From NCBI GenBank assembly GCA_047456305.1, contig CP179888.1, positions 116,421 through 180,420 of the forward strand: 64,000 bases of DNA. The letters run 5' to 3'. The stretch comes from Candidatus Nealsonbacteria bacterium (lineage in GTDB: Bacteria > Patescibacteriota > Minisyncoccia > Minisyncoccales > CAZKCU01). The position numbers and the translations under genes were made by a program. Of the stretch, positions 6,246-63,829 are shown in pieces (the stretch's first letter is position 1; each line of letters begins with the position of its first letter). The notes under the pieces are model-generated. The model was not told the origin of the DNA. It saw only the letters and a program-made list of their open reading frames with translations, and searched no databases.

Positions 6246-6250
6246 ATATT

Positions 6251-20024: not shown

Positions 20025-20028
20025 AACT

Positions 20029-20925: not shown

Positions 20926-20951
20926 TAATTTAAAATTAATAAGGGGTAGAT

Positions 20952-21671: not shown

Positions 21672-23593
<1,922 letters not shown>

Positions 23594-23619
23594 AAATCGA
23601 GTTTTTACGCAGTAAAAAC

Positions 23620-23755: not shown

Positions 23756-23772
23756 ATTTATTTTATTAGTGG

Positions 23773-23799
23773 TTAGCAAACACGACCTTTGAGTGCTAA
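23773..23799. promoter_or_regulatory. CIRCE-like inverted repeat (TTAGCAAAC-N9-GAGTGCTAA), candidate HrcA operator upstream of groES-groEL
   Basis: Right half-site is a perfect GAGTGCTAA. Left half is 7/9 to TTAGCACTC. Spacer is 9 nt. ~180 nt upstream of the groES start. No hrcA in window. Confidence 0.45.
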
Positions 23800-23878
23800 T
23801 ATTCTATTTTAGAAATTAATAAAAATCTGTCAAGCCCTAACAAAGGAAGGCTAACGAAAAATCGTCAATTCGTTAGCC

Positions 23879-24343
23879 TTACTTATAGCTTTTTACTAAA
23901 AGCTTATCTTTAAAAAGCTTCCTCATTTCTTCGCTTAATTCATCAATACTTATCCCTGGACTAACAACTATTGACGGAACATCAGGATATTTTTCCAGAT
24001 GTTTTTGAGCAGCTTGAAGAGAGCTTTTTATTTGGAAATCAACTTGCTCTCCCTCTAAAGATAAAAACCAACCATCTTGATGCAAAATATAATCATGATA
24101 TCTCCATCCTGGATATTTTCCAAAACACCAAATCCATTCTTGTTTTTGCCAGAGTTCCAAAACTTGAAAAACTTTTTGAGCGCTGGCTTTGCCCTTTTTT
24201 AAACCTATTTGATAAAAAAGATATTTAATTCTCCCTGCTTTTCTTTTACTTCTCAAAAGAGATCTTTTTATGCTGTTGAATCTTTTTCTTCTACTGGGTT
24301 TCACTCTACCCATCTCCTTTCCTAGAAATATTTTATTATTCAA
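23879..24343 (-). CDS. Hypothetical protein with basic (R/K-rich) N-terminus, immediately downstream of uvrA
   Basis: 154-aa ORF, 10 nt after uvrA stop, co-oriented. No recognisable motif. Confidence 0.4.
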   Translation of the reverse strand: MNNKIFLGKEMGRVKPSRRKRFNSIKRSLLRSKRKAGRIKYLFYQIGLKKGKASAQKVFQVLELWQKQEWIWCFGKYPGWRYHDYILHQDGWFLSLEGEQVDFQIKSSLQAAQKHLEKYPDVPSIVVSPGISIDELSEEMRKLFKDKLLVKSYK

Positions 24344-24352
24344 GAACCAATT

Positions 24353-27300
24353 TTATTTTAGCATTTTCTTTAAATATTGTCCAGTATAACTTTTTTTGTT
24401 TTTGGTAATTTCAAATGGCGTTCCTTCAGTCACAATATAACCTCCCCTATCTCCTCCCTCAAGCCCTAAATCTATGACCCAATCTACGTTACGAATAATA
24501 TCGATATTGTGTTCAGACACAAGTACTGTATTTCCTTTTTCCACTAATCTTTTTAAAACCAAAACCAGTTTTTTAATATCGTAAGGATGTAAGCCAGTTG
24601 TCGGCTCATCTAAAATATAAAGAGTTCTGGCACTGGTTTTTTTAGAAAGTTCAGTAGATAGTTTTACTCTCTGGGCTTCTCCGCCAGATAAAGAAGGGGC
24701 TGGCTGACCCAATTGAACATAGCCTAAACCAACATCGTTTAAAGTTTTTAGTTTATAATATAGACCAGGAATATTTTTGAAAAATTCCAGCGCTCCCTCA
24801 ACTGTCATCTCTAAAATTTCAGCAATATTTTTCCCCTTGTATTCAATCCCTAATGTTTCCTTATCAAATCTTTTACCTTTACACTCCTGGCATTCAACGT
24901 AAACATCCGGTAAAAAATACATCTCAATCTTTATCTCTCCCTGACCCTCACAGGCCTCGCATCTTCCTCCCTTGACATTAAAACTAAAGCGACCCGGCTG
25001 ATAACCTCTGATTCTGGCTTCGCGGGTTTTAGAGAAAAGATCTCTAATATAAGAAAAGGCTCCGGTATAAGTTGCCGGGTTTGATCTCGGAGTTCTGCCA
25101 ATTGGAGATTGATCAACCAAAGCCACTTTATTTAAATTCTCAGTTCCTAAAATTTCTCGATGTTCTCCCGGCTCCTCTTTTGATTTATAAAATTTTCTCA
25201 TCAAAGCCCGGGCCAAAATGTCGTTCATCAAAGAACTTTTCCCAGAACCAGAAACGCCAGTAATACAGACAAACTTTCCTAAAGGAACCCTAACATCAAT
25301 ATCTTTCAAATTATGCTCCTTTGCCCCCTTAATCATTAAGCACTGTTGAGGCCTGGTTTCAACAGATTTTGGTTTCAATTTGATTTCTACTTTCTTTCGA
25401 CCGGCCAAATAATCTCCAGTAAGTGTATGAGCTTTAAGTAATTCTTTCGGTGTCCCCTCAAAAATAACTTTACCACCGTGTTCCCCTGCTCCAGGTCCAA
25501 TATCAATTACCCAATCAGATTTTTTAATAGTTTGTACATCATGTTCGGTTAAGACCACTGAGTTCCCCAAATCTCTAAGTTTTTTTAAAGTTTCAATCAA
25601 TCTTCCCTGGTCCCTGGCATGAAGACCAATAGATGGTTCGTCTAAAATATATAAAACTCCGGTTAATCTTGAACCAATTTGGGTAGCCAATCTTATTCTC
25701 TGTTCCTCACCCCCAGCCAAGGTTTTAGTTTTTCTATCCAAAGTCAGATAATCCAAGCCAACATCAATCAGAAATTGCAAGCGATTGATAATTTCTTTAA
25801 TAATTGGTTGGGCAATCTTGAATTCATTTTCGCTTAAGGTTTTGCGTCTCTTCCTGGTATTTTGCCGCCTCGGTTTCGCGATTTCTTCAAAAAATTCTTT
25901 TATTTTATCAATGCTCATTCCGACAATCTGATCAATCGATTTCCCTGTTATTGTTACTGCTAAGGCTTCTGGTTTTAATCTTTTCCCCTGGCACTTCTCA
26001 CATCTTCTCTCAATCATATATTTCTCAATTTCCTGACGAGCCGCTTCAGAGTCAGTTTGATAGTATCTTCTTTCCAGATTAGGAATTACTCCCTCAAAGA
26101 TCGAGCCTGCCCTCGCAGGCGAAGGTGAAGATGAAGCTTTAGCTTCATCGCCAATCGAGCTTTCGCTCGGCGAATCAAAGGACATTCTGTTCTTTTCTAC
26201 CCTTCGCTGCGCTTGGGTAAGCGAAGATGAAGAAGAAGGAATCTTCTTCGACGTGTTCGATCCATAAAGAATAATATCTAAAATTTTTTTTGATAGATTT
26301 TTAATGGGTGTATCTAATGAAAAATTACATTTTTCAGCTAAATCGGAAAGTTGCCACCAAAAATAACCCTGTCTTCCTATTTTGTGGGAAGCATGAGCCC
26401 AGGGAAAAATTGCTCCTTCTGAAAGAGATAAATTGGGATTAGGGATAACCAATGAGGGCTCAACTTCTAATTTCTCTCCCAATCCCTGACAGGCTGGGCA
26501 AGCTCCATAAGGACTATTGAAAGAAAAAAATCTTGGCTCTAATTCTGGCAGAGAAATTCCGCACTCCTCGCAGGCAAATTGTTCTGAAAAGACTTCGTCT
26601 TTTGATTTTTGACGGGCGAAGAGAACTTTGTTCTCTTCTTCCCCCTCGCTCTCCACCAAATCTTGGTGGAGAGCTCGGTTTTTAACATTTGGTATTTGAC
26701 TTACAATTAGGATGCCTTTTCCTAATTTTAAAGCCATTTCTAGAGAATCGACTAACCTTGACTTGTCTAAATCTTTATCAAGAATCAGTCTATCCACCAC
26801 CACCTCAATGTTGTGTTTTTTGTAGTGAGAAAGTTTTAATCCTGAGGCTTCCTCTATCGCCGAGCTCCGCAATGCGGAGCGAGGTGGAAGATGAGGTAAA
26901 ACCTCATCGATCCGATAAATTATTCCATCAATCCTCACCCTAACAAATCCTCCTCTCTGAATTTCTTCTAAAATCCCCCGGTGTTCTCCTTTTTTTCCTC
27001 GGATTACGGGCCCCAAAATGATAATTTCTTTCCCTTTGGGCAACTTCAAAATCTGTTCCGTAATCTGATCTATGGTCTGGCGAGTAATTAGTTTGCCACA
27101 TTTGGGACAATGAGGTTTTCCAACTCTGGCAAACAAAAGCCTAAGATAATCATAAATTTCAGTAATGGTGCCTACGGTCGAACGAGGATTATGGGCTGCT
27201 TTTCTTTGGTCAATTGAAATTGCAGGAGAAATTCCCTCGATTTTATCAACATTAGGTTTTTTCATTACCCCCAAAAATTGCCTGGCATAGGCAGATAGTG

Positions 27301-27472
27301 ATTCAACGTATCTCCTTTGGCCTTCAGCATATAAAGTATCAAAGGCTAAAGAAGACTTTCCAGAACCAGAAATACCGGTAATCACCACCATTTTATTTTT
27401 GGGAATATCAACGTTTATGTTCTTTAGATTATGCACTCTGGCGCCTCGAATTTTAATAAAATCGCCTTTCAT
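24353..27472 (-). CDS. uvrA: Excinuclease ABC subunit A (UvrA), ~90 aa longer than typical owing to in-frame repeat-derived insertions
   Basis: Two ABC ATPase modules: Walker [11 protein letters not shown] twice, signatures LSGGE, Zn-finger CxxC modules. 1039 aa. 26103-26262 encodes [47 protein letters not shown] from the repeat family. Confidence 0.95.
26103..26262. repeat. Intragenic copy of palindromic repeat family, in frame within uvrA
   Basis: tctacccttcgctgcgcttgggtaagcgaagatgaagaagaagg matches 23696-23740. Also contains palindromes gcctgccctcgcaggc and gaagctttagcttc. The uvrA reading frame is uninterrupted. Confidence 0.7.
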
Positions 27473-27530
27473 AGAAGTTATCCATTATACTCTAAATTTC
27501 CGAATCTTTCAAGAAGGGGTAAAATAAAAG

Positions 27531-27745
27531 TGGCAAAGAGAACTTTGTTCTCTTCTTCACCTTCGCTTCCTTCGGAAGCTCGGTTGGCAAAGAGAACTTC
27601 GTCCGTCGAGTCGCTACGAGACGAAAGAAGAAATACTTTTCTTCGTACTCTTCTTCACCTTCGCTTAGCGAGATTTTGCGAAGCAAAAGCGAAGATGGAA
27701 AAGAGGCTTGCCTCTTTGACCCATAAATGAAAGCTCGGTTAATGA
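27531..27745. repeat. Composite palindromic-repeat copy between uvrA and capA; overlaps annotated capA start
   Basis: Contains cttcgcttccttcggaagctcggtt, tccgtcgagtcgctacgagacgaaagaagaaatacttttcttcgtactcttcttcaccttcgct, aaagaggcttgcctctttgac and cataaatgaaagctcggttaatg, which match modules at 310-452, 6880-6905 and 63281-63331. Confidence 0.7.
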
Positions 27746-28797
27746 AAAAGATTTTTCCTTGGTTAATTTTAATTAGCTTTATCATTGCCTTAGGTTTATT
27801 TCTTTTAATTGAAATCTATCGATTTCCGAAATCAATAGATTATTCCGAACCGAGAGTAGATGAATTGATTGAGGAAAAAACAATCACTCTAATTTTGGTT
27901 GGCGATATAATGCTTGACCGTGGAGTGGAATATATGGTTGAAAAACAAGGAGGTGGAGATTTCAGGTTCCCATTCTTGAAAATCAGCGATGAACTAAAAG
28001 GAGCAAATCTCCTTTTTGGAAATTTGGAAGGGGTAATTTCTGATAAAGGAATTAAGGTCGGCAGTATTTATTCTTTTAGAGCCGATCCAAAAGCAATTGA
28101 AGGATTAAAATTTGCCGGCTTTAATCTTTTATCTTTGTCTAATAATCACGCCTTTGACTACGCAAGAGAAGCCTTAGAAGATTGCCTATTTAAGCTAAGC
28201 AAAGGAGGAATTGGTTATGTTGGAGCTGGTTTTACAGAAAAAGAGGCTTATTCTCCTTTTGTCAAAGACTACAACCCGCCCACCACATCCTCCCATTCCT
28301 CGCTTCACTCGGAACAGGCCCCTATCGAGGGTACTAAAATTGCTTTTTTGGCTTATACTAATTTAGGACCTGAAGCCTGGAAAGCTGGCGAGAAAAATTC
28401 TGGGATTGCTTGGATTTCAGAAAAAGATTTTGAAAAAATTAAAAAAGATATTGAAAATGCTAAATCTCAAGCTGATATTTTAATTGTTTCTTTACATGCC
28501 GGAGAGGAATATCAAAAAACGCCTACTCAATTTCAAATTGAATTTTCTAAAATGGCAATTGAGGCTGGAGCAGATTTAATAGTTGGCCATCACTCTCACG
28601 TAATTCAACCGAATGAAAAATATGGGAATGGCTATATTTTTTACAGTTTAGGAAATTTCATTTTTGACCAAGGCTTTTCCGAAGAGACAATGAGAGGACA
28701 AATTATTGAAGTTTTGATAGAAAACAAACAAATAAAAGAAGTTATTACAAAAGAAATTAAAATAAACAATTTTTTCCAACCAGAGATTTTAGAGTAA
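27727..28797 (+). CDS. capA: CapA/PgsA-like metallophosphatase-fold protein (poly-gamma-glutamate/capsule biosynthesis family), membrane-anchored
   Basis: LILVGDIMLDRG, FGNLEG, LSNNHAFDY, HAGEEY, GADLIVGHHSHVIQP motifs. First ATG lies inside a repeat, so the second ATG (MKKIF) may be the true start. Confidence 0.8.
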   Translation: MKARLMKKIFPWLILISFIIALGLFLLIEIYRFPKSIDYSEPRVDELIEEKTITLILVGDIMLDRGVEYMVEKQGGGDFRFPFLKISDELKGANLLFGNLEGVISDKGIKVGSIYSFRADPKAIEGLKFAGFNLLSLSNNHAFDYAREALEDCLFKLSKGGIGYVGAGFTEKEAYSPFVKDYNPPTTSSHSSLHSEQAPIEGTKIAFLAYTNLGPEAWKAGEKNSGIAWISEKDFEKIKKDIENAKSQADILIVSLHAGEEYQKTPTQFQIEFSKMAIEAGADLIVGHHSHVIQPNEKYGNGYIFYSLGNFIFDQGFSEETMRGQIIEVLIENKQIKEVITKEIKINNFFQPEILE

Positions 28798-28913
28798 TAA
28801 ACATATATATTATGCTTGACAAAATTAAAGTAGGATGCTATAATACTGTTATAGAACTTTGTAAAATAAAAATAGAGAATCAAGAAATAAACTAAAGAAA
28901 GGAGGAATAAAGA

Positions 28914-29441
28914 ATGGGAAAAAGAAAAAGAATGGACAAAAGAATAGAAAAAAGAATGGAAAAGATAATTGTGTCAGGTCTCGGTATTGCACTGGTGGTA
29001 TGCATGATTATGGGGATAATATCGCTAGTGAGATCATATACCCGAGAGGAAGCAATAGTTGAAGAAGCAACAGTTGAGGAATTTCAAGCTCAGGTTGCTG
29101 ACTTAAAACAGCAATTAGCCGAATTACAGGCCCAGCTGCAAACCCAACAACCTCTTACCCTTCTTTCTCCCAATAGCGGAGAAAAGTGGGTAATTGGAAA
29201 AACTTATCAAATTAAATGGCAATCAATTGGAGTAAATAAGGTAACGATTGAACTCCTCAGTGCCGATGTCAGAAAAACTATCACCAGCTTTCCTAACAAC
29301 CCGGGGTTCTATAATTGGACTATTTCTTCTGATATAGTTCCGAATGATAAATATAAAATTAGAGTAATTTCTTATGAACTCTCCCCAGCTATAAGTGATT
29401 TAAGTGATGATTATTTCAGTATTGTTGAGAGGGATAAGTAA
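28914..29441 (+). CDS. Membrane-anchored protein with coiled coil and C-terminal beta-sandwich (Kre9/KNH-like, tentative)
   Basis: TM IIVSGLGIALVVCMIMGII, coiled coil QAQVADLKQQLAELQAQLQ, then GEKWVIGKTYQIKWQS...VTIEL. Confidence 0.45.
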   Translation: MGKRKRMDKRIEKRMEKIIVSGLGIALVVCMIMGIISLVRSYTREEAIVEEATVEEFQAQVADLKQQLAELQAQLQTQQPLTLLSPNSGEKWVIGKTYQIKWQSIGVNKVTIELLSADVRKTITSFPNNPGFYNWTISSDIVPNDKYKIRVISYELSPAISDLSDDYFSIVERDK

Positions 29442-29473
29442 ACCTTCTTGATTCTCTATCTATTTTAAAGTTT

Positions 29474-29508
29474 AAAGCCCTAGACATGTCTAGGGCTTCC
29501 TGTTTTTT
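29474..29508 (+). terminator. Intrinsic terminator (aaagccctagac-at-gtctagggctt + cctgTTTTTT)
   Basis: 12-bp near-perfect stem followed by T6, 30 nt after the stop of 28914..29441. Confidence 0.6.
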
Positions 29509-29555
29509 ACGATAAAAGATTGAAAAATGAAAAATTTTAAGTTAAAATTTGTTAT

Positions 29556-30983
29556 ATGGAGAAATTCAAGTTTTTACCAAAGGATAAAATTTCTCAGCTT
29601 CCCAAAGTTCCTGGAGTCTATGCATTTAAAAAAGGTGCTAAGCTCCTTTATATTGGCAAGGCGGCGAATCTCAAGGAAAGAATAAAACAACATGAAGATT
29701 TGCTTAGCTTAACTAAACAAATCGGCTATATTAAAACCAATTCGGAAATTGAGGCTTTGATTTTGGAGGCAAATTTAATAAAGAAATATAAACCAAAGTA
29801 TAATGTAACGTGGCGAGATGATAAAAATTATTTCTTTGTCGGAATCACCAAAGAGGACTTCCCCCAAGTTTTTATCACCCACCAACCCACCAAAATTTTT
29901 GCTTCGCAAAAACTTAGGCGGGCGAGCCAAAAATTAAAAAGTAATTATATTGGTCCTTTTGTAGACGGTACTGCCTTAAAAGCAACTTTAAAAATTTTGA
30001 GAAAGATTTTCCCTTACCGAACTTGTAAAAATCTGCTAAAAAAACCTTGCCCTCCCAAATTTTTAGATCAATCAGTAAAACCAACTAAACTTACAGAACC
30101 CCAAAAACTTGGGAGGGCTTGTCTCTGGTATCAACTTGGCAGATGCCCCGCCCCTTGTTTGTTAAAGTCTAAGTTGGGAGAACAAATTCCCGGTCTGGAA
30201 ACTAAAATAAAGAAAGAGTGTCAAAAAAATATAAAAAATATAATGAAAATTTTACAAGGAAAGAAAATTCGAGTGCTAATTGATTTAAAAAGGGAAATGA
30301 AAAAAGCCTCTTTAATCCAAGATTTTGAAAAGGCAGCAAAAATTAGAGATAAAATAAGGGCTTTAGAAAAAGTTTTGGCTCATGCTAAAATTTTTGAGCT
30401 CCAACTTTCTCAAGCGGTAAACTGGAACCAAATTCAAAAAACTTTACAAAAAATTTTAAAAACAGAAGATAGAATTTCTCGCATTGAGGCCTATGATATT
30501 TCAAATATCCAGGGCCAGGAAGCTACCGGTTCCATGATTACTTTTATAAAAGGCCTACCTGATAAAAAATTCTATCGAAAATTTAAGATTAAAACAGTTG
30601 GAAAACCAAATGACGTGGCTATGCTCAAAGAAATATTGCATAGGAGAATTAACCATCCTGAATGGGGCTGGCCAGATTTAATTTTAATTGATGGAGGAAA
30701 AGCCCAACTAAATGCGGCTCTTCAATGTTTAAAGTATAAGTTTAAAGAAATGAGAGTTATGGCTTTAGCTAAAAAGAAAAATGAATTATTTATTAAAGGA
30801 AGAAAAGAGCCGATTTTGCTCAAAAAATTGCCGAGGGCGAAGAAAATAGATTTTCTTCTTGATCCTTCGCTAACGCTCGGGAGAGAAATTTTCAATTTAA
30901 TCTTGCAGCTTCGTGATGAAGCTCACCGATTTGCCATTTCTTACCATAAAAAATTAAGAAAAAAGAAATTAATAGAAGGTTGA
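29556..30983 (+). CDS. uvrC: Excinuclease ABC subunit C (UvrC), apparently lacking the C-terminal (HhH)2 domain
   Basis: N-terminal GIY-YIG (GVYAFKKGAKLLYIGKAANLKERIKQH). UVR motif (LIQDFEKAAKIRDKIRALEK). RNase H-like endonuclease region (AYDISNIQGQEATGSMITF). 475 aa versus ~600 aa typical. Confidence 0.75.
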   Translation: MEKFKFLPKDKISQLPKVPGVYAFKKGAKLLYIGKAANLKERIKQHEDLLSLTKQIGYIKTNSEIEALILEANLIKKYKPKYNVTWRDDKNYFFVGITKEDFPQVFITHQPTKIFASQKLRRASQKLKSNYIGPFVDGTALKATLKILRKIFPYRTCKNLLKKPCPPKFLDQSVKPTKLTEPQKLGRACLWYQLGRCPAPCLLKSKLGEQIPGLETKIKKECQKNIKNIMKILQGKKIRVLIDLKREMKKASLIQDFEKAAKIRDKIRALEKVLAHAKIFELQLSQAVNWNQIQKTLQKILKTEDRISRIEAYDISNIQGQEATGSMITFIKGLPDKKFYRKFKIKTVGKPNDVAMLKEILHRRINHPEWGWPDLILIDGGKAQLNAALQCLKYKFKEMRVMALAKKKNELFIKGRKEPILLKKLPRAKKIDFLLDPSLTLGREIFNLILQLRDEAHRFAISYHKKLRKKKLIEG

Positions 30984-31077
30984 CCTTTAATTAAATATTT
31001 GCTACCCTTTATATACCTGAGCGAAGCAAAAGGTGAAGATGAAGGCAAACTCCGAAGGAGGTAAACTTCATTGACTT

Positions 31078-31485
31078 ATGAGGCGTCTATTATTACAAAT
31101 TATTGCTGGGATTTTAGGTTTCTGGCTGGCTATAAAATTTGTTCCCGGGGTAGAATTTAGAGGTCCTACATTTGTTATCCCAGGACCAGGGGTAGAATTT
31201 GGCCAGCTCTGGGGAACTTTAGTTTTTGTGGGAGCCTTTTTGGGATTTCTTAATTTTTTTATAAAACCAATTTTAAATAAACTTACCCTACCTCTAAGAA
31301 TTATTACTTTTAATCTTTTCAGCCTGGCTATTTCCATGGGATTAATCTGGACGGTTGATATTTTCTTTAAGGAGTTAATTATTCAAGGTCTTTTACCTCT
31401 TTTTTGGATAGCTGTAATCCTTTGGGGGCTAAACTTAGCCCTCTCTCAATTTATTACTAAAAGGTCTTACTTTAAGAAAACATGA
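31078..31485 (+). CDS. Four-TM membrane protein of the phage-holin-4/PF04020-like family
   Basis: LAIKFVPGVEF...FLNFFIKPILNKLTLPLRIITFNLFSLAI pattern typical of this family. Function unknown. Confidence 0.5.
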   Translation: MRRLLLQIIAGILGFWLAIKFVPGVEFRGPTFVIPGPGVEFGQLWGTLVFVGAFLGFLNFFIKPILNKLTLPLRIITFNLFSLAISMGLIWTVDIFFKELIIQGLLPLFWIAVILWGLNLALSQFITKRSYFKKT

Positions 31486-31697
31486 AAGGATATTTACCCT
31501 TCCTCCAAATTATAGTTGCCCTCTTTTTAGTTATCTTCATTCTCTTACAACAAAGGGGAACTGCCCTTGGTTCTGCCTTCGGGCAATCGGGGGGATTTTA
31601 TGCTACCCGGCGGGGTATTCAAAAAAAAATCTTCTGGGGAACAATAGTGCTTGGAGCTCTTTTTGTAGTCTTGGCTCTTTTAAATTTGGTTTTCTAA
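31482..31697 (+). CDS. secG: Preprotein translocase subunit SecG
   Basis: 71 aa, two TM. LLQQRGTALGSAFGQSGGFYATRRGIQKKIF matches the SecG core. Start overlaps previous stop. Confidence 0.6.
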   Translation: MKGYLPFLQIIVALFLVIFILLQQRGTALGSAFGQSGGFYATRRGIQKKIFWGTIVLGALFVVLALLNLVF

Positions 31698-33727
31698 TGT
31701 CTTTTTTTTGCAAAACAAAGAGAATTTACGAAAATCTTAAAAGGAAATTGTTCCCTAAAGCCTTTCCTTCTTTTGCAAAATGGAAACAAATTCTCCCTAT
31801 TTTAACAAAAAAAGAGAAGGTAGTGTTGGCTATTTTTTTGATTTTATTTTTTGGCTCTTCTCTCTTCCTCGGTCTCAATTTTTATTTTAGGAATACTGAA
31901 ATAAAGCCTGCCATTGGCGGAACTTATAAAGAGGGTATAATTGGTTATCCCAGATTTATTAATCCAATCTATGGAGAGAATTCTGATACGGATCGGGATT
32001 TGGTTCAGCTCATTTTTTCAGGTTTAATGAAATACAATCAGAAAGGAGAAATTGTTCCCGACCTTGCCAAAGAATATAAAATTTTAGAGAATGGAAAAGT
32101 TTTTGAATTTTCTTTAAAAGAAAATCTTTTTTGGCAAGACAATGAGAAATTAACTACTGATGATATAATTTTTACCATAAAAACTGTCCAAAATCCTGAT
32201 TATAAAAGTTCTTTAAGAGCAAATTGGTTAGGGGTGGAAATTGAGAAAATTTCCAACTCAAGTATTCGCTTCAAATTAAAAAACCCTTATCCTGCCTTTT
32301 TAGAAAATCTGACTTTAAAAATTTTACCGAGCCACATCTGGCAGGATATTCCTCCCCAAAATTTTCCCTTGTCAATTTATAATCTTCAACCCATTGGATC
32401 AGGACCTTATCAGTTAAAAAGCCTAAAACAAGATAAATTAGGATATATCAAATCTTTAACTTTAGGTGCCAATCCTAAATATTTTGGAGAAAAGCCAAAG
32501 ATTAGAGAAATTTCTTTTCATTTTTTTGATACCGAAGAAGAACTAATTAAATCTGCCCAAAGAAAAGAAATTCAAGGGCTTTCAATTTTTGACCCAAAAA
32601 AATATCAACTCTTTAAAGATACTGAATTTAAAGATTATCACTTTTCTTTACCAAGATACTTTGCTGTATTTTTTAATCCAGAGAAATCAGAAATTTTGGC
32701 TGAAAAAACAATAAGAGAGGCTTTAAATTATGGCACTAACAAAGAGGATATTATTAAGCTTTCCCTTCTGGGACAAGGGAAAGTCGTCGATTCTCCGATC
32801 TTGCCAGAAATTTACGGATTTTCCTCCCCCACCACTTACTATGAGTTTAATCCAGAGAAAGCTAAAGAAATCTTACAAGAAGCCGGATTTGTTGAAGATG
32901 AAACCGGAATCAGGAAAAAGATTGTCAAAAAAGAAACAATTTTTCAATTTAAAAGCGACCTTAAATTAGGTTCTCGAGGGGAAGAAGTAAAAGAACTTCA
33001 AAAATGCCTATCAAAATATCCTGAAGTTTATCCTCAAGCTAAAATTACCGGATTTTTTGGCTCAGAAACCAAAGAGGCAGTCATCCGTTTTCAGGAAAAA
33101 TATGCCAAAGAAATTTTAGAACCCTGGGGATTCACAAAGGGAACAGGTGTCGTCAGTAAAACTACCCGCAGCAAATTAAATGAAGTTTGCCAAAAAGTTC
33201 CGGTAGAAGGTTTAGAACTCTCCTTAGTTTTAGTTACGGTCGACCAACCCCTTTTAGTTGAGACAGCCCTTCTTTTGAAAGAACAATGGAAATCCTTGGG
33301 AGTAGAAATCGAAATTAAAACATTTGACATCCAAACTCTTGAGAGAGATATTATTAAGCCAAGAAATTATTCAGCTTTACTATTTGGTGAAGTTTTAGGG
33401 GCCATCCCTGACCCTTTCCCCTTCTGGCACTCTTTGCAAAAGAGAGATCCCGGTTTAAACCTATCTTTCTATGAAAATAAAAAAGCTGATAAATTATTAG
33501 AGAAAGCTCGTCAGAGTCAAGAGCCTGAAATTAGAGCTCAAAATCTGGAAGAATTTCAAAATATTTTAATTAATGAAGCTCCAGTGGTATTTTTGTACAG
33601 CCCAGATTATATTTATTTGGTTTCAGAAGAAATTAAGGGAATAAATGCGGAGATAATTATTAACCCTTCAAAAAGGTTCTCAGAAATAGAAAATTGGTAT
33701 ATTAAAACTAAAAGAATGTGGAAGTAA
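31697..33727 (+). CDS. ABC transporter substrate-binding protein family 5 (peptide/nickel type) with N-terminal TM anchor and an inserted peptidoglycan-binding (PG_binding_1-like) module
   Basis: SBP_bac_5-like N-terminal signature GGTYKEGIIGYPRFINP. Insert LKLGSRGEEVKELQKCLSKYPEVYPQAKITGFFGSETKEAVIRFQEKY is the classic PG-binding helical repeat. Confidence 0.7.
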   Translation: MSFFCKTKRIYENLKRKLFPKAFPSFAKWKQILPILTKKEKVVLAIFLILFFGSSLFLGLNFYFRNTEIKPAIGGTYKEGIIGYPRFINPIYGENSDTDRDLVQLIFSGLMKYNQKGEIVPDLAKEYKILENGKVFEFSLKENLFWQDNEKLTTDDIIFTIKTVQNPDYKSSLRANWLGVEIEKISNSSIRFKLKNPYPAFLENLTLKILPSHIWQDIPPQNFPLSIYNLQPIGSGPYQLKSLKQDKLGYIKSLTLGANPKYFGEKPKIREISFHFFDTEEELIKSAQRKEIQGLSIFDPKKYQLFKDTEFKDYHFSLPRYFAVFFNPEKSEILAEKTIREALNYGTNKEDIIKLSLLGQGKVVDSPILPEIYGFSSPTTYYEFNPEKAKEILQEAGFVEDETGIRKKIVKKETIFQFKSDLKLGSRGEEVKELQKCLSKYPEVYPQAKITGFFGSETKEAVIRFQEKYAKEILEPWGFTKGTGVVSKTTRSKLNEVCQKVPVEGLELSLVLVTVDQPLLVETALLLKEQWKSLGVEIEIKTFDIQTLERDIIKPRNYSALLFGEVLGAIPDPFPFWHSLQKRDPGLNLSFYENKKADKLLEKARQSQEPEIRAQNLEEFQNILINEAPVVFLYSPDYIYLVSEEIKGINAEIIINPSKRFSEIENWYIKTKRMWK

Positions 33728-33744
33728 AACATCGTTGATGATAA

Positions 33745-33829
33745 GCCGAAGTGGCGAAATTTGGTAAACGCGACGGCCCCAGGAGCCGTTGGGCGAAAGC
33801 CCTTGTGGGTTCAAATCCCACCTTCGGCA
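33745..33829 (+). tRNA. tRNA-Leu (anticodon CAG read from loop CCCAGGA; C at position 33 is unusual)
   Basis: GCCGAAG acceptor. Long variable arm TGGGCGAAAGCCCT. T-arm GTGGG-TTCAAAT-CCCAC. 85 nt. The ORF-track ORF 33751..35532 spuriously starts inside this tRNA. Confidence 0.7.
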
Positions 33830-33831
33830 CT

Positions 33832-35532
33832 ATGAAAAAATCTCAAAAAAATCTCAGGATTATCCCTCTTGGTGGATTAGGCGAGGTTGGCCGTAATATG
33901 ATGCTCCTTGAATGGCAAGAACGCCACCCTTCCTCAAGAGGGTCCCCTATTTTAATTATTGATATGGGTCTTGGTTTCCCGGGAGAAAATATGCCAGGTA
34001 TTGACTGTATTATTCCAAATATTTCCTATCTTAGAGGAAAAGAAAAGAACATCTTGGGAGCGGTTCTGACTCACGGCCATTACGACCATATTGGTGCTAT
34101 CCCCTATATTATCCCCCGACTTGGGTTAATACCAATGTACGCTTCTCAATTAACTAAGGGGATTATCTTAAAAAGACGGGAAGATTTTCCTAATCAACCA
34201 AAACTTAACATAGAAAACATAAAAGATGGCTCTAAAATTCAATTGGGACCCTTCCAAGTAGAATTTTTCAAACAGAATCATAATATCCCTGATAACCTTG
34301 GATTATTTATTAAGACCCCTCTCGGAAATATTGTCCATACTTCTGATTTTAAATTTGATGAATCTCCGGTCAATGAAAGCCCTACTGATTTTGAGAAATT
34401 AAAAAACATTGGCAAAAGAGGGATTTTGCTTTTGATGTCTGAATCAACCGGAGCTGAAGAAGAAGGTCATTCTCTTTCAGAAAAAACAATTTTTGAAAAT
34501 TTAGACAAGATTTTTAAAAAAGCAGAGGGAAGAATTATTGCTGCCTCCTTTGCTTCCCTGATTAACAGAATTCAACAATTAATTATCCTTTCAGAAAAAT
34601 ATGGAAGAAAGGTAACAATTGAAGGACATAGCATGAAAATTAATGTTGAGATTGCTCAAACTTTAAAAAAGATTGAAGCTAAAAAGGGAACTTTTATAAG
34701 AACAAAAGATATTGGCAAATTTCCTGACTCAAAAATAACAGTTATCTGCACTGGTGCTCAGGGAGAAGAAGAGGCAGTTTTTATGAGAATTGCCAATCGA
34801 GAACATAAATTTATCCGGCTCAAGAAAGAAGATACAATTATTTTTTCTTCTTCGGTCATCCCTGGAAATGAAAGAAGTATTCAGTTCTTAAAAGACCAAT
34901 TTCACCGTCAAGGAGCTAAGGTTTTCCACTACAAAATGATGGATATTCATGCTTCCGGCCATGCCAGAGAAGAAGAGTTAAAAGAAATGCTCAGAATTAT
35001 GAAGCCAAAATTCTTTCTGCCTATTTATGGCCAATACTCAATGCTTGTCAGGCACGCCCAGTTAGCTGAAGAAGTAGGTTTATTAAAACAAAACATAATG
35101 GTGGCTGAAAATGGAGAGGTTATAAACCTAAGCTCAAAAAGAATTTTCATTGAAAAGAAAAGAGTTCCCTCAAATTATGTAATGGTTGATGGCTTGGGAA
35201 TTGGCGATGTAGGAGAAGTAGTCTTGCGAGACCGCCAAACCTTGGCAAAAGATGGGATGTTTGTGATTGTGGCCGTTGTGGATAGACAGGCTGGTAGAGT
35301 CAAGGGTTCTCCTGATATAATATCAAGAGGATTTGTTTATCTTAAAGAATCAAAGGAATTACTCAAAGAAACGAGAAAAAAGGTAACAGATATTGTCAAT
35401 AGAGCAGCAGGTTCTGGTGGAGCGGTTAATTGGAGCTATGTCAAAAATGAAATAAGAAACAAAATCGGCCAATTTCTTTTTTCCAAAACTCAGAGAAGGC
35501 CAATGATTTTACCTGTGGTCATAGAAGTGTAA
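33832..35532 (+). CDS. rnj: Ribonuclease J (beta-CASP metallo-beta-lactamase RNase)
   Basis: Start reassigned to ATG at 33832 (MKKSQKNLRIIPLGG). HxHxDH motif THGHYDHIG. Beta-CASP motifs. C-terminal domain. Confidence 0.85.
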   Translation: MKKSQKNLRIIPLGGLGEVGRNMMLLEWQERHPSSRGSPILIIDMGLGFPGENMPGIDCIIPNISYLRGKEKNILGAVLTHGHYDHIGAIPYIIPRLGLIPMYASQLTKGIILKRREDFPNQPKLNIENIKDGSKIQLGPFQVEFFKQNHNIPDNLGLFIKTPLGNIVHTSDFKFDESPVNESPTDFEKLKNIGKRGILLLMSESTGAEEEGHSLSEKTIFENLDKIFKKAEGRIIAASFASLINRIQQLIILSEKYGRKVTIEGHSMKINVEIAQTLKKIEAKKGTFIRTKDIGKFPDSKITVICTGAQGEEEAVFMRIANREHKFIRLKKEDTIIFSSSVIPGNERSIQFLKDQFHRQGAKVFHYKMMDIHASGHAREEELKEMLRIMKPKFFLPIYGQYSMLVRHAQLAEEVGLLKQNIMVAENGEVINLSSKRIFIEKKRVPSNYVMVDGLGIGDVGEVVLRDRQTLAKDGMFVIVAVVDRQAGRVKGSPDIISRGFVYLKESKELLKETRKKVTDIVNRAAGSGGAVNWSYVKNEIRNKIGQFLFSKTQRRPMILPVVIEV

Positions 35533-35540
35533 TAAAAAAT

Positions 35541-36518
35541 ATGAGAATTTTTAGCGGCGTTAGGCCAACTGGAGAACTACATATTGGAAATTATTTGGGA
35601 GCTATCAAACAATGGCTCGAACTTCAAGAAAAAAATGAGTGTGTTTTTTGTATTGTTGATTTACATGGAATCACTACGCCTTACAATCCCAAAGAGCTTC
35701 AAAAAAATATCCTTGATGTAGCTATTATCTATTTATCTGCTGGTCTCAGCCCGGAAAAATGTATTTTTTTCGTTCAGTCCCAAGTCAGAGAACATACGGA
35801 GCTAACCTGGCTTTTAGGAACAATTACCCCTTTGGGGGAACTCCAAAGAATGACCCAGTTTAAAGAAAAGGCCAAAAAACACAAAGAATATATCAATGCC
35901 GGCCTTTTGAATTACCCAGTTTTAATGGCTGCTGATATTTTGCTTTATCAAACCGATTTAGTTCCAGTAGGAAAAGACCAAGAACAACATGTTGAATTAG
36001 CCAGAACCATTGCCAGAAAATTTAACCAGATCTTTGGCCAAACTCTCAAGGAACCAAAAGTTTTACTTCCTAAAATCGGAGCAAAAATAATGAGTTTACA
36101 AAATCCTAAGAAAAAAATGTCAAAAACCGATGATCCTCGGGGTTGTATTGGATTATTTGACGAACCGGAAGAAATTCAAAAGAAGATAATGTCAGCTGTC
36201 ACTGACACTGGAAAGGTGATTAAATACGACCAGAAAAAGAAACCAGGGATATCTAATCTCTTAACTATTTATTCTCTGTTTTCGGAAAAAACAATTAAAG
36301 AAATTGAGAAAAAAATTAAAGGAAAGGGTTATGCTGATTTTAAGAAATCTTTGGCTAAGCTTTTAATAAATTCTTTAGAACCATTTCGCCGAAAAAGAAA
36401 AGAACTTCTCTCAAGAGAAGTTTATGTCAGAGACATCTTAAATAAAGGAAATAGGAGAGCCCAGATTATTGCTCGATCTACTATGGCTGAGGTCCGAAAA
36501 AAAATGGGCCTAGTTTAG
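35541..36518 (+). CDS. trpS: Tryptophan--tRNA ligase
   Basis: HIGH-class motif GELHIGNYLG. KMSKS variant KMSKT. GxDQ motif VPVGKDQEQH. Confidence 0.9.
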   Translation: MRIFSGVRPTGELHIGNYLGAIKQWLELQEKNECVFCIVDLHGITTPYNPKELQKNILDVAIIYLSAGLSPEKCIFFVQSQVREHTELTWLLGTITPLGELQRMTQFKEKAKKHKEYINAGLLNYPVLMAADILLYQTDLVPVGKDQEQHVELARTIARKFNQIFGQTLKEPKVLLPKIGAKIMSLQNPKKKMSKTDDPRGCIGLFDEPEEIQKKIMSAVTDTGKVIKYDQKKKPGISNLLTIYSLFSEKTIKEIEKKIKGKGYADFKKSLAKLLINSLEPFRRKRKELLSREVYVRDILNKGNRRAQIIARSTMAEVRKKMGLV

Positions 36519-36544
36519 TTTAAACTAAACTCAATTTTGCAGTT

Positions 36545-36576
36545 TTATCTTCACACTTCTGAAGATTTATTTTTCA
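36545..36576 (+). terminator. Terminator hairpin (atcttca-cacttc-tgaagat + ttaTTTTT) after trpS, overlapping the stop of the convergent gene
   Basis: 7-bp perfect stem followed by a T-run on the plus strand. Confidence 0.45.
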
Positions 36577-37997
36577 AGCGCCTCGATGTTTAAATTTATG
36601 TCAGAATTCCAGTCTATCTCCTGGTAATTATGAAGTAATCTATCAATGTAGTTCCTTAAATAACTATATCTCTCCTCTGTTTTTGCCTCAAATTTAACCG
36701 TAAGATAAGGGGCATTTTGTGAATAGCGGATGACAAACATCCCATCGGATATATCAACCCTAACTCCATCGCCGGCTCGTTCATCATCAATAATTTTGGC
36801 GTCTGGAAAATCTTTTTTAAGCACCGGGCTAATTTTTTTAATTAGCTCGACTTTTTTTTCATCAGCACAATATATTTTTATTTCAGGACTCGATATATAC
36901 TTAGGAAGTAAATCTTTGGCAGCCGATAGTGACTGATTAGTTTTTGCCAGATAACTTAACAAACGCAAAGTTGAATAAAGCCCGTCATCATGATTGTAAA
37001 AATCAGCCGAAAAGAAGAAATGTCCTGATAACTCTCCGATAAAGGCTGCTTTAACTTCCTGATTTTTTTTCTTTAAAAATGAATGGCCAGTCCGCCACAT
37101 AAAGGGCTTACCACCATATTTTATAATCGTTTCTTCAACAACTTTTGAGCAAAGGGTATTGTACATAATCGTTGCTCCCGGATACTCTTTCAAAACATCA
37201 ATAGTAAATAGCGCCACCAACACATCATTCCAAATAATATTTCCTTTATCGTCAATAATTCCAATTCGGTCACCATCTGTATCATATGAAAAACCGATGT
37301 CTGCTTTTTCCTGTAATACCCGCTCTCTTAGACGTTGAGCAACAGTAATTCCGGTTGGGTCTGGCGTGCCCAAAGGAAAAGAAGAATCTAGCTGACAATT
37401 ACTCTCAATAACTTTACACCCCGCCCTTTTCAATAAATCTGGGGCAATTACCCCGGCTGTTGAACAACTGGGGTCCACCACTGCCTTGAATTCTTTGCCA
37501 ATTGGTAATCTTTTTAGCAAATCAGTAAAATATGCCTCGCGAATATCCTGCTTTTCAATTTTCCCTACTGTATCACCTTCCTCGTAATCTTCCTTTTCAA
37601 CCATTCGCCTTAACTCCTGAATGCTGTCACTGACCAAGGTTTCAGAAAAATCAATAGCAAATTTAAAACCATTGTATTCAACCGGATTGTGCGATCCAGT
37701 GATATAAACCCCACCTTTGCAATTTAAATAGTATTGCGACCAATAAAAAGTTCCGACAAGATCCATACCAATATTAATTATATTAATACCAGCCCAGCTT
37801 AAACCTTTAATCACGGTTTCGCTATATTGAGGGCTTGTCGCTCTTGAATCATAACTCACTACCGCTTTTTTAATGCCGCGTCTCTTCAAAAAGGTACCAT
37901 AAGCTTTTCCAATGTGCTCCACTATTTCCGGATCTAAATCTTTATCAACTATCCCCCGCACATCATAGCCGCGAAATATATAGGGGTTGATTTTCAT
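36567..37997 (-). CDS. Phosphoglucomutase/phosphomannomutase family protein
   Basis: Active-site TGSHNP, metal-binding DTDGDR, sugar-binding GELSGH motifs. Confidence 0.85.
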   Translation of the reverse strand: MKINPYIFRGYDVRGIVDKDLDPEIVEHIGKAYGTFLKRRGIKKAVVSYDSRATSPQYSETVIKGLSWAGINIINIGMDLVGTFYWSQYYLNCKGGVYITGSHNPVEYNGFKFAIDFSETLVSDSIQELRRMVEKEDYEEGDTVGKIEKQDIREAYFTDLLKRLPIGKEFKAVVDPSCSTAGVIAPDLLKRAGCKVIESNCQLDSSFPLGTPDPTGITVAQRLRERVLQEKADIGFSYDTDGDRIGIIDDKGNIIWNDVLVALFTIDVLKEYPGATIMYNTLCSKVVEETIIKYGGKPFMWRTGHSFLKKKNQEVKAAFIGELSGHFFFSADFYNHDDGLYSTLRLLSYLAKTNQSLSAAKDLLPKYISSPEIKIYCADEKKVELIKKISPVLKKDFPDAKIIDDERAGDGVRVDISDGMFVIRYSQNAPYLTVKFEAKTEERYSYLRNYIDRLLHNYQEIDWNSDINLNIEALEK

Positions 37998-50730: not shown

Positions 50731-60382
<9,652 letters not shown>

Positions 60383-61694: not shown

Positions 61695-61714
61695 TTAACT
61701 TAAACTTTAATTAG

Positions 61715-63829
61715 TCAAAGAGAATAAATCCTCTTTTCCACCCTTCGCCTACGGCTCGGGTAGCAGATTAACTTTAGGAATTCTTTCTCTTCAATTGTTT
61801 TTACTCCCAGGTTTTTCGCTTTTTCAAATTTTGAGCCGGGTTCTTTGCCAACAACAAGGAAATCGGTTTTTTTTGAAACTGACTCAGAAATTTCCCCGCC
61901 CAAAAGCCGGATTTCTTCTTTTGACTCTTCTCTGCCCATTGTTTCCAAACTACCTGTAAGCACAAATACTTTCCCTTTTAACTTTAAATCTTTAGTTTTA
62001 ATCTTTGGATTTTCTATTCTTATTCCAACTTTTTTTAGTTTTTCCAAAAATTCCAAATTACTTTTTTGGGAAAACCAATCATAAATACTTTTAGCCACTA
62101 CTGGGCCAATATCCATAACTTTTTCAAGATCTCTGAGGTTTGCCTTTTTTAATTTTTCTACAGAACCAAAATAGTCTGCCAAATCCATACTAGTTTCTTC
62201 TCCAACATTTCTAATTCCTAAAGCATAGATAAATTTTGACAATTGAATTTTTTTTCGAGACTGAATCGCCTCGATTAAATTTTTAACCGATTTTTCAGCA
62301 AACCTTTCAAGAGGTAATAAATCTCCTTCCTCAAGCACAAATAAATCGGATGGGTCAGAGACTAATCCTTCATCAATCATTCTGTCAACAATTTTAGGAC
62401 CAAGGCCTGAAATATCAAAAGCTCCTTTTGAAATAAAATGACGAAAATATTCTCTCAGCTGAGCTGAACATTTTGGATTTGGGCAACGCCAAACAACTTC
62501 TCCACTGGGTTTGATAATTTTTACTCCACAGGCCGGGCATTTTTTTGGCATTCTGAAAACCTTTTCTTTTCCGGTTCTTAGTTCTGGTAAAACTTTGATA
62601 ATATCAGGGATAACATCCCCTGCCCTGCCGACAATAACCGTATCACCAATTTTTACTCCTAATTTTTTTATTTCTTCTTCGTTATGAAGAGTGGCTCTTG
62701 AAATTGTGACTCCGCCAACCTCCGCAGGTTTCAAAATTGCTACCGGGGTTAAAGCTCCGGTTCTGCCTACCTGAACAATAATATCTTTAATAATGGTGGT
62801 GGCTTGTTTTAAAGGAAATTTATAAGCTATAGCTCCCCGGGGAGCCTTTCCCACAATCCCCAATTTCTCAAAAATTTTATTTGGATTAATAATAACCACA
62901 ATCCCATCAATTTCATAGGAGAGCTTTTCTCTTAATTTTTGGCTCGCTTTATGAAAATTAAAAACTTCTTTCAGATTCTTGCAATATTTATTATGGGGAT
63001 TAGTTTTAAAACCTAAGGCTTTTAAAATCTGGTGTTTTTCTTGATGAGTTTTTTGACCAAGGTCAGTAACTAAATCATAGATAATCGAATCGAGGCGGCG
63101 AGAAGCTGTTACTTTTGGGTCAAGCTGCCTGATAGACCCTGCTGCCACATTCCTTGGATTAGCATAAGGAGAAAGATTCTTTTTTATTTGTTCTTTATTT
63201 AATCTCTCGAATTCTTTTTTTGAGATAAAAACCTCTCCCCTCACGACAAGCCTTGAAGGAATTTCTAATTTTAAACAGTCAAAGAGGACTTTGCCCTCTT
63301 TGACACCTTCGCTTCCAAAGGAAGCTCGGTTTCTAATTTCTAATTTAAGTGGTATAGCTTCAATTGTTTTTAAATTTTGAGTAACATCTTCGCCAATTAT
63401 CCCATCGCCTCTGGTCGAACCGGTTTTAAAAATCCCCTGCTCATAAATCAGCTCAATAGCTAAACCATCAATTTTAAGCTCGCAGAAAAAATCTATCTCT
63501 GATTTTTCTTCAGTTGTTAACAGTTTTGAAATTCTCTCCAGCCAATCTTTCATATCATCTTCTGAAAAAGCATCATTAAAAGAAAACATCGGTTTAGGGT
63601 GTCTAATTTTCTCAAATTTTTCTAAGGGTTTGCCTCCTACTCTTTGGCTGGGAGAATCAGGAGTAAGAAGCACGGGAAATAATTTTTCTAAATCAAAAAG
63701 TTCTTTTTTCAAAGAATCAAGAGCAGCTTCAGAAATCTCTTGACGATCATGAACATGATATAAATAACGGTGATGGTTAATCACCTTTTTTAATTTTTCA
63801 ATCCTTTTTTTAGCTTCTTGTTTAATCAT
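61715..63829 (-). CDS. ligA: NAD-dependent DNA ligase LigA, carrying an in-frame repeat insertion (about 63258-63346)
   Basis: Adenylation motif KIDGLAI (KxDG). Zn finger CPACGVKIIKPSGEVVWRCPNPKC. HhH and BRCT regions. Insertion ...IPLKLEI[RNRASFGSEGVKEGKVLFDCLKLEI]PSRL flanked by duplicated AAATTAGAAATT. Confidence 0.9.
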   Translation of the reverse strand: MIKQEAKKRIEKLKKVINHHRYLYHVHDRQEISEAALDSLKKELFDLEKLFPVLLTPDSPSQRVGGKPLEKFEKIRHPKPMFSFNDAFSEDDMKDWLERISKLLTTEEKSEIDFFCELKIDGLAIELIYEQGIFKTGSTRGDGIIGEDVTQNLKTIEAIPLKLEIRNRASFGSEGVKEGKVLFDCLKLEIPSRLVVRGEVFISKKEFERLNKEQIKKNLSPYANPRNVAAGSIRQLDPKVTASRRLDSIIYDLVTDLGQKTHQEKHQILKALGFKTNPHNKYCKNLKEVFNFHKASQKLREKLSYEIDGIVVIINPNKIFEKLGIVGKAPRGAIAYKFPLKQATTIIKDIIVQVGRTGALTPVAILKPAEVGGVTISRATLHNEEEIKKLGVKIGDTVIVGRAGDVIPDIIKVLPELRTGKEKVFRMPKKCPACGVKIIKPSGEVVWRCPNPKCSAQLREYFRHFISKGAFDISGLGPKIVDRMIDEGLVSDPSDLFVLEEGDLLPLERFAEKSVKNLIEAIQSRKKIQLSKFIYALGIRNVGEETSMDLADYFGSVEKLKKANLRDLEKVMDIGPVVAKSIYDWFSQKSNLEFLEKLKKVGIRIENPKIKTKDLKLKGKVFVLTGSLETMGREESKEEIRLLGGEISESVSKKTDFLVVGKEPGSKFEKAKNLGVKTIEEKEFLKLICYPSRRRRVEKRIYSL
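63258..63346. mobile_element. MITE-like palindromic repeat inserted in frame in ligA with 12-bp target-site duplication (AAATTAGAAATT on coding strand)
   Basis: Insert aaagaggactttgccctctttgac + cttcgcttccaaaggaagctcggtt matches modules at 27700-27720 and 27555-27594. Flanked by the direct repeat ttctaatttt / ttctaatttctaattt on the plus strand. 75 bp total, so the frame is preserved. Confidence 0.65.

Follow-up and report, generated by a model that had tools for sequence, protein, structure and literature searches.

The ligA gene of a Candidatus Nealsonbacteria bacterium carries an in-frame palindromic segment that we consider, with a probability of about 0.8, to belong to a family of hairpin repeats that are small, non-coding and non-autonomous and are mobile in Nealsonbacteria and other Patescibacteria. 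The gene lies within a 64,000-nt stretch of contig CP179888.1 (positions 116,421 to 180,420), which was analyzed over its full length and is referred to below as the window. A first-pass annotation of the window, made from the letters alone, had noticed a dispersed, stop-free palindromic repeat inside an intact ligA, and its description of a 75-bp in-frame segment with a KLEI-coding direct repeat on both sides proved accurate. Its reading of this segment as a transposed element flanked by a target-site duplication was not sustained. The ligA insert is only one example of a large family, apparently not described before, whose copies remodel essential proteins of the Candidate Phyla Radiation (CPR).

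The insertion in ligA

The gene (61715-63829, minus strand) encodes an NAD-dependent DNA ligase of 704 amino acids (aa) and hosts two copies of the element. The protein contains the full set of LigA Pfam domains (DNA_ligase_aden, OB, ZBD, HHH_2 and BRCT), and its catalytic motifs are intact, with the invariant residues K119, D121, G122, R197, G198, E199, D308 and K328. The 75 extra bases consist of a 54-nt two-hairpin unit, 9 nt of linkers and the second copy of the direct repeat AATTTCTAATTT. The first-pass annotation had divided them into an element of 63 bp and a 12-bp repeat; the mobile unit is the 54-nt portion.

This unit, GTCAAAGAGG...GGAAGCTCGGTT, occupies positions 63278-63331 of the plus strand, antisense to ligA. 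Hairpin A (GTCAAAGAGG/CCTCTTTGAC) is joined by the linker ACACCTTC to hairpin B (GCTTCC-AAA-GGAAGC, with the closing ACC/GGT), and the two-hairpin fold has a predicted energy of -25 to -31 kcal/mol (z = -4.6 to -6.0 versus shuffled sequences). The first copy of the direct repeat (63260-63271), which encodes KLEI in ligA and is part of a microsatellite-like array of a 7-nt unit (AAATTAG), is separated from the hairpin unit by the 6-nt linker TAAACA (63272-63277; TGTTTA, encoding CL, in ligA), and the second copy (63335-63346) by the 3-nt linker TCT (63332-63334). These are the only two occurrences of AATTTCTAATTT in the window, and they are spaced 75 nt apart. In the ligA sense the order is therefore AAATTAGAAATT, AGA, the unit itself (AACCGAGCTTCCTTTGGAAGCGAAGGTGTCAAAGAGGGCAAAGTCCTCTTTGAC), TGTTTA and again AAATTAGAAATT. 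The surrounding protein sequence reads ...IPLKLEIRNRASFGSEGVKEGKVLFDCLKLEIPSRLVVRGEVF; the peptide contributed by the unit is NRASFGSEGVKEGKVLFD, and the residues running through the insert include ...KLEIRNRASFGSEGVK....

Among 120 aligned LigA homologs, the 75-nt segment is restricted to the window allele (P0001) and to P0002 (94% identity) and P0004 (84%). The site is empty in P0005-P0008 (82% identity), whose proteins read IPLKLE[A/T]PSRLVVRGE; in the DNA of P0008 a single AAATTAGAA is directly followed by ACTCCCTCA. Removal of the insert and one repeat from the window allele yields this empty-site sequence, i.e. the usual short spacing expected by the first-pass annotation. The allele P0003 (89% identity) lacks the unit and is exactly 54 nt shorter than the window allele; its DNA, AAATTAGAA AACAGAGATTCG AAATTAGAAATC, retains a direct repeat with a 21-nt period. 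The adenylation domains of solved LigA structures (1B04, 4LH6 and 1TAE) align up to ...PLKLE and again from LKLEIPSRL, leaving residues 165-185 unmatched, and the LRLK of these structures is aligned twice. As judged from the close orthologs, the ligA segment is an insertion, and it is not an assembly artefact, because it is also found in the independent assemblies P0002 and P0004.

In an AlphaFold2 model of LigA the insert (residues 168-186) has a predicted local distance difference test (pLDDT) score below 50, between flanking blocks of 87-90, and is located just ahead of the strand bearing VRGEVF (motif III). The insert is thus modelled as a disordered surface loop immediately before motif III, which is the location that the first-pass annotation had suggested looking for.

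The distribution of the insert does not follow the LigA phylogeny. In a neighbour-joining tree based on 658 gap-free columns, P0001, P0002 and P0003 group as ((P0001,P0002),P0003) with a support of 0.99, followed by (P0005,P0008) with 0.79, and P0004 is placed apart, together with P0009 and P0025. The window allele and P0004 nevertheless have in common the unit, both linkers (which are identical) and both repeats. Moreover, over the 225 nt adjoining the insert on its 3′ side, the window ligA is 85-89% identical to P0004 and only 76-78% identical to P0003, so that a mosaic segment (approximately 63050-63260) is closer to the distant P0004 than to the nearest relatives. Given the shared insert and the mosaic similarity, exchange of the insert-bearing segment between lineages by homologous recombination is the most likely explanation, rather than three losses.

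The second family copy in ligA (61709-61765, plus strand; match at 61709-61763; 29.7 bits, E = 2e-5 with the covariance model described below) is located at the 3′ end of the gene. Comparison with the C-termini of orthologs revealed that it replaces the ...KLIR-stop of the relatives with ...KLICYPSRRRRVEKRIYSL-stop, giving LigA a 16-residue tail, CYPSRRRRVEKRIYSL, and a new TGA stop codon, with the old TAA directly after it. In the AlphaFold2 model, tail residues 691-704 have pLDDT values below 50. This copy, as well as five copies in uvrA and uvrC, had been missed in the first-pass annotation.

A dispersed family with gains and losses between close relatives

An exact or near-exact search of the window with the whole 51-nt unit recovered only the unit itself. 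The family is recognizable only by its conserved feet and linker; therefore, a covariance model was built from 52 copies and applied to the window with a threshold of E < 0.01. The consensus unit is approximately 54 nt long, with the architecture G[G/T]CGA[A/T]GAG-stem/loop-CTC[T/A]TC, TTCA[C/T]CTTCGC-stem/loop-GCTCG[G/A]T. Fifteen distinct copies were identified, eight in one orientation and seven in the other, and seven of them lie inside open reading frames (ORFs): two in ligA, four in uvrA and one in uvrC. The match in ligA covers positions 63273-63332 of the plus strand (61.3 bits, E = 3e-13). The recurrence of the modules in intergenic DNA, as previously noted, was confirmed at 27533-27585 and 27700-27717, and extends to many more places.

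To follow the gain and loss of copies, window positions 19400-37600 were compared with the syntenic regions of two relatives, L006 (91.9% identity) and L007 (90.5%), of which 17 kb could be aligned. Three sites in uvrA (24353-27472) are occupied by in-frame copies. A 66-nt copy at 26610-26681 (plus strand), which matches the ligA copy in orientation and frame, and a 153-nt composite of two to three modules at 26098-26260 (minus strand; matches at 26098-26157 and 26197-26260) are present in L006 and absent from L007. The third, a 54-nt insert at 26858-26912 (minus strand; match at 26857-26917), is missing from both relatives. These copies, at least four in number, account for the length of the window UvrA, 1039 aa versus 943 aa in a close relative. 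Among UvrA orthologs, which range from 926 to 1104 aa, the modules are patchy and combinatorial, and P0127 and P0128 (943 aa) have no module at any of the three sites. Within uvrA we also observed that the 3-nt loop of a 12-bp stem (26648-26674) is GAT in the window and ATC in L006; this flip is a small inversion of the kind that cruciform or hairpin DNA makes.

The single copy in uvrC is an in-frame 48-nt module (30831-30883, plus strand), which is tandemly duplicated in L006 and absent from L007; an additional 44-nt insert is likewise shared by the window and L006 only. A nested and tandem array of modules at 27527-27740 (plus strand; matches at 27527-27586 and 27665-27725; 75.8 bits) corresponds to a 209-nt insert (27531-27740) found in neither relative, and ends 1 nt before the ATG of a PGA_cap-family gene. 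The spacer between uvrA and this gene is just 60 nt in both relatives. Composite copies upstream of groES (23594-23771, minus strand; matches at 23594-23657 and 23697-23755) are also restricted to the window, as inserts of 123 and 33 nt, and their 87-nt core is 92% identical to positions 363-449. The latter belong to an intergenic composite with extra nested hairpin modules (307-451, plus strand; match at 396-451). The remaining copies comprise two intergenic ones (6843-6905 and 6959-7021, plus strand) and one immediately before the ATG start codon of rpoD (11954-12024, minus strand). Apart from its tandem uvrC module, L006 has a 53-nt unit of its own, as well as a 48-nt module nested in a loop (CTCCTT|CGGAG). 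Altogether, six insert segments are confined to the window, two of them from other hairpin families (see below), and three to L006.

Copies are thus gained and lost between genomes that are approximately 92% identical, and they nest in each other's loops and build tandem arrays. The lengths of the coding inserts are 48, 54, 54, 66, 72 and 153 nt, and those of the intergenic inserts 53, 209, 44 and 123 nt; only multiples of three were seen within genes. A mean of 4.0 of the six reading frames is open per copy, versus 2.5 for random 54-mers of the window, and five of the six frames of the consensus contain no stop codon.

Six clean filled/empty pairs were available for analysis of the junctions (GTAATA|AATTGA, AAAAGT|AATGAAAAAG, TTATCG|GATAGA, TTTTGAC|CTTTAAC, TTTCT|CTCGGC and CTCCTT|CGGAG). 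Their junction ambiguity is 0-3 nt, and the family inserts without target-site duplication. In 65 copies from other genomes, the conserved GCTCG is followed by [G/A]-T-A-W-W-T-[G/A]-A, with A at position 8 in 62 cases. Copies insert with a constant spacing of 5 nt ahead of the trinucleotide T-R-A, which takes up positions +6 to +8 counted from GCTCG. Empty sites already contain the T-R-A, which therefore represents a target preference and not a part of the element. By eye, 11-12 of the 15 window copies conform to this rule, including the ligA copy (GCTCG GTTTC TAA). The tandem arrays would be explained by the 5′ end of the unit, AG[G/T]CGA, which resembles the target in having Y-R-A at the same distance.

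The occurrence of the family in other genomes was assessed by scanning contigs, one genome per species, for the pattern CTTCGCTTCCNNNGGAAGCTCG. Of 89 matches, 66 were found in metagenome-assembled genomes (MAGs) of Patescibacteria with the full two-hairpin context. Approximately 25 matches come from a single Nealsonbacteria MAG, and the other carriers are further Nealsonbacteria, Parcubacteria, Paceibacter, Berkelbacteria and MAGs labelled Saccharibacteria. The approximately 23 matches in unrelated phyla have neither hairpin A nor the linker and were treated as chance. In-frame copies in other MAGs are located in genes for the CCA-adding enzyme, a CFA-synthase-like protein (twice), NusA, MetRS, UvrC, DnaX, RpoA and TrmD. 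At the other extreme, an empty-site relative has only one or two family copies in 45 kb. We also found a bona fide two-hairpin copy (L074, 4927-4986) on a contig of 5.7 kb that had been assigned to Candidatus Woesearchaeota, a DPANN archaeon; this reflects either cross-domain spread or mis-binning.

CPR genomes are tiny and under strong reduction, yet those of this lineage tolerate a fast-turnover selfish repeat in genes for repair, replication, transcription and translation. The family would account for many "CPR-specific insertions" in conserved proteins and for their patchiness among close relatives, and both gene calling and alignment-based phylogeny of these genomes are affected. It also provides a second system, independent of that of Rickettsia, in which to observe how proteins absorb random peptide inserts.

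Alternative explanations and mobilization

Several observations weigh against a mobile family. Many intergenic copies are placed 4-5 nt ahead of start codons, which could also mean function. The ligA copy is the only one with a long flanking direct repeat, and an atypical duplication at this site alone keeps a small residual probability. No gene for a transposase, a REP-associated tyrosine transposase (RAYT; REP, repetitive extragenic palindromic sequence) or a Y1 transposase was found in the window, where Pfam searches, including 30 further ORFs, detected housekeeping genes only. A phmmer search that used E. coli RayT as the query and covered 973 ORFs, from 576 kb of sequence surrounding copies elsewhere, gave nothing at E < 0.1, at limited sensitivity. 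The 8-to-7 orientation of the window copies is unlike the strand bias of IS200/IS605-type elements, and GC skew tracks the coding strand and does not reveal the direction of replication. Finally, translation of the LigA insert stands as a prediction.

The best-surviving alternative is that the hairpins are functional RNA or regulatory structures, acting in translation initiation or stability or as RNA thermometers or terminators, and that the coding copies are incidental. We regard this as unlikely. It agrees with the position of most intergenic copies, which end 4-5 nt before an ATG or TTG (rpoD, groES, the PGA_cap gene). Such positions probably arise because typical gene-boundary strings (ATGA, TTGA, TAAATGA), in a genome that is AT-rich (36.9% GC), hold the target; the T-R-A is also found at intragenic sites and pre-exists in empty ones. 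Covariation of the hairpins is a further point in favour of function: in the 52 copies, 73 cells are changed on both sides of a pair, compared with 28.8 +/- 5.1 after shuffling (none of 500 shuffles was as high), and hairpin B is closed by C-G in 34 copies and by U-A in 14. However, properly folded hairpin A stems contain 427 Watson-Crick pairs, six G.T and six A.C mismatches. Since G.T and A.C are equally rare, a DNA palindrome fits better than an RNA selected on one strand. Also against a regulatory element, copies are found in either orientation, within ORFs, as arrays and inside one another, and they are present or absent between 92% identical genomes. Rfam searches (with the gathering threshold over the whole window and an E-value threshold over two element regions), which returned three tRNAs and noise only and no match to this family, point the same way. 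Integron attC sites and CRISPR were considered as well and dropped, as there is neither a GTTRRRY core nor regular spacing.

The interpretation put forward in the first-pass annotation, taken here as a classical MITE of 63 nt mobilized by a DDE transposase into ligA with a 12-bp target-site duplication, is less probable still. MITEs are small, non-autonomous, multi-copy elements with occasional in-frame fusions (PMC10969869), and the family resembles them in all these respects but has no terminal inverted repeats or target-site duplications. The exact 12-nt repeat around the insert, present nowhere else in the window, and the recovery of the P0005-P0008 sequence on removal of the insert and one repeat would both be expected of such an element. 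However, the ends of the unit (GTCAAAGAGG... and ...GCTCGGTT) do not form an inverted repeat; the palindromy is confined to the interior of each of the two hairpins. The repeats do not abut the unit, with 3 nt and 6 nt intervening, and the six filled/empty pairs described above show at most 3 nt of duplication.

The repeat itself also occurs without the unit. P0003 has it, and P0095 (71% identity) carries (AAATTCC)x4 at the same site; P0059 has the same 7-nt units plus a different 18-nt insert. Once the 54 nt are removed, the window allele reads AAATTAG AAATTAG A|TGTTTA AAATTAG AAATTCC, i.e. five 7-nt units, which is also the number in P0003, compared with two in P0008. The three added units amount to 21 nt, the smallest in-frame expansion. 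The repeat AAATTAGAAATT was therefore probably produced by slippage in a 7-nt array older than the insertion and is not a footprint of transposition. We also considered the 12 extra bases of P0003 as the excision footprint of a 54-nt deletion; the best register matches only 6 of 12 positions, and a pre-existing array is favoured.

The presence of an insertion sequence (IS) gene in one relative could also be taken to favour a MITE. In the nearly family-free L004, the only two family copies (20674-21790) are situated approximately 200 nt upstream of an IS1595-family transposase gene, but neither a link nor shared ends between these copies and the IS could be demonstrated.

It is very improbable that the extra 25 residues of LigA are a selected, functional extension to which the nucleotide repeat is secondary: they are kept in three sequenced alleles (P0001, P0002 and P0004), and many Parcubacteria LigA proteins have other, longer inserts in the same loop, but the segment is absent from the closest relatives, is modelled as disordered, and the same DNA unit yields unrelated peptides in other genes. 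In real genes the unit is read in at least three frames (NRASEGSEGEEE..., TELPKEAKVKKR... and ...SSSSPSLPSEAR). The ligA units of the window and P0004 differ by 7 nt in four codons (F to E, V to E, K to E and V to A), and all four differences are non-synonymous. Both hairpins are retained, with the stem of hairpin B unchanged and a register shift in hairpin A (10 bp in the window, 9 bp in P0004; three outer pairs lost, two inner pairs gained). On this sequence evidence, constraint acts on the nucleic acid and not on the peptide, and the hairpins are kept by compensatory changes.

Our verdict is that the family is a hairpin element similar to Rickettsia palindromic elements (RPEs) and to REPs and palindrome-associated transposable elements (PATEs), and not a classical MITE. 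The RPEs, which the first-pass annotation rightly named as the behavioural precedent, are described in PMC10969869 as dispersed palindromic repeats present in frame in unrelated, often essential genes (citing Ogata et al. 2000), approximately 100-150 bp long and confined to Rickettsia; the extra peptide segments fit the protein fold, the elements themselves encode nothing, no enzyme is known to mobilize them, and their host has a reduced genome. The CPR family shares the in-frame palindromic insertion tolerated by the fold, the absence of coding capacity or a known mover and the reduced-genome host. It is set apart from the RPEs, as these are described, by its size (approximately 54 nt), its two separate hairpins, its modular and nested organization, the fixed T-R-A and its occurrence in Patescibacteria.

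The elements of the REP/BIME/REPIN group are short imperfect palindromes with conserved feet and compensated variable stems, which occur in high copy number and tandem clusters and insert without target duplication; REPs are extragenic, have a conserved 5′ GTAG and co-occur with a REP-flanked RAYT gene (PMC3116915). The CPR family resembles them in its many short imperfect palindromes, conserved feet, compensated stems, tandem clusters and lack of duplication, but it lacks the GTAG motif, 7 of its 15 copies in the window lie within genes, and the search around copies detected no RAYT homolog. PATEs derived from IS200/IS605 elements also lack terminal inverted repeats and target duplications, are recognized by their hairpins and insert next to a short specific target. 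They have a TnpA(Y1)/TnpB partner and a strand bias and are longer than the CPR unit, and the known IS200/IS605 targets directly abut the element. The CPR family has hairpins at its ends, a short specific target and neither inverted terminal repeats nor duplications, as in PATEs, but no Y1 TnpA/TnpB partner was found near the copies, the orientation is 8 to 7, the unit is far shorter, and the T-R-A is spaced rather than abutting. Small dispersed repeats of cyanobacteria, attributed to Elhai et al. in 2008, are reportedly very small and nest within one another. Palindromes tolerated in reading frames are further exemplified by the PARCEL repeats of Mollicutes (PMC2996958) and by coding palindromes of Nematomorpha mitochondria (PMC6649704). 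These three groups differ from the CPR family in host, size and sequence architecture, and none of them has been reported from CPR. The literature searched, consisting of reviews on RPE, REPIN, PARCEL and MITE, contains no report of such elements in CPR, in line with the earlier remark to that effect.

Since no transposase, RAYT or Y1 gene was found, and a regular-expression search for HUH/Y motifs in ORFs around copies in other MAGs yielded nothing convincing, the mechanism is one that we infer. The fixed-distance T-R-A and the lack of duplication are taken as clues to the mobilization mechanism, and mobilization via folded single-stranded DNA is put forward tentatively, as a possibility that may well prove wrong. 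The mover might be a trans-acting enzyme that recognizes folded single-stranded DNA, following a logic similar to that of IS200/IS605 or REP/RAYT systems, or the copies might spread by hairpin-driven template switching. In the proposed course of events, a variable loop that immediately precedes motif III (VRGEVF) in the nucleotidyltransferase domain would already have held a 7-nt repeat expanded by 21 nt when the unit inserted there. The 18 extra residues would be translated as a disordered surface loop and persist as neutral passengers, and the insert-bearing allele would later have crossed lineages by homologous recombination. Within genes in general, only open-reading copies in tolerant loops would survive.

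It is nearly an even question, with the balance slightly against, whether the family constitutes an undescribed superfamily, i.e. very small (approximately 48-66 nt), modular and nestable elements without target duplication and with a fixed T-R-A distance, Patescibacteria-wide and possibly present on a DPANN contig, mobilized as folded single-stranded DNA and a major source of insertions in essential CPR proteins (LigA, UvrA, UvrC, NusA, RpoA, MetRS and DnaX).

Other hairpin elements and repeats

Hairpin elements of other families were also distinguished. An in-frame 72-nt element, CCCTCCCAA...TTGGGAGGG, is located at 30051-30123 within uvrC (29556-30983), and a hairpin of the same kind with a 15-bp stem (53112-53144) lies near the start of an ORF encoding a TPR protein. 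The PGA_cap gene contains an in-frame 54-nt element, ...GGGAGGATGTGGTGGGCGGGTTGTAG (28269-28323), a related 50-nt copy of which is found elsewhere in L007. Both the 72-nt and the 54-nt elements are window-only inserts in the comparison with L006 and L007.

The LigA loop between IPL and RGE is occupied by different hairpin inserts in other Parcubacteria (L094, encoding P0031, and L095, encoding P0058). One is GGGACAGTCCGGGGACAGTCCAGGGACTGTCCC (GQSGDSPGTVP), while the other is a GC-rich insert of approximately 90 nt that resembles the family at 28269-28323. Insertions of several element families concentrate in this loop.

A repeated sequence, TTCTACCAAAAAACCGCC...GGCGA, with the look of a terminator-like hairpin, is present at 3417-3456, 4511-4550, 6241-6299 and 10563-10621, downstream of several minus-strand genes. 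Long tandem repeats at 53242-53647 and 55670-56647 are associated with an ORF of 2337 aa (53264-60277); they include 9-nt units over approximately 400 nt, 21-nt units and four 156-nt units. Region 4656-5685 contains an ORF for an AbiEii-like nucleotidyltransferase toxin and an adjacent DUF6922 ORF, possibly forming a type IV toxin-antitoxin system, with a GC-rich 10-bp hairpin at 4593-4616.

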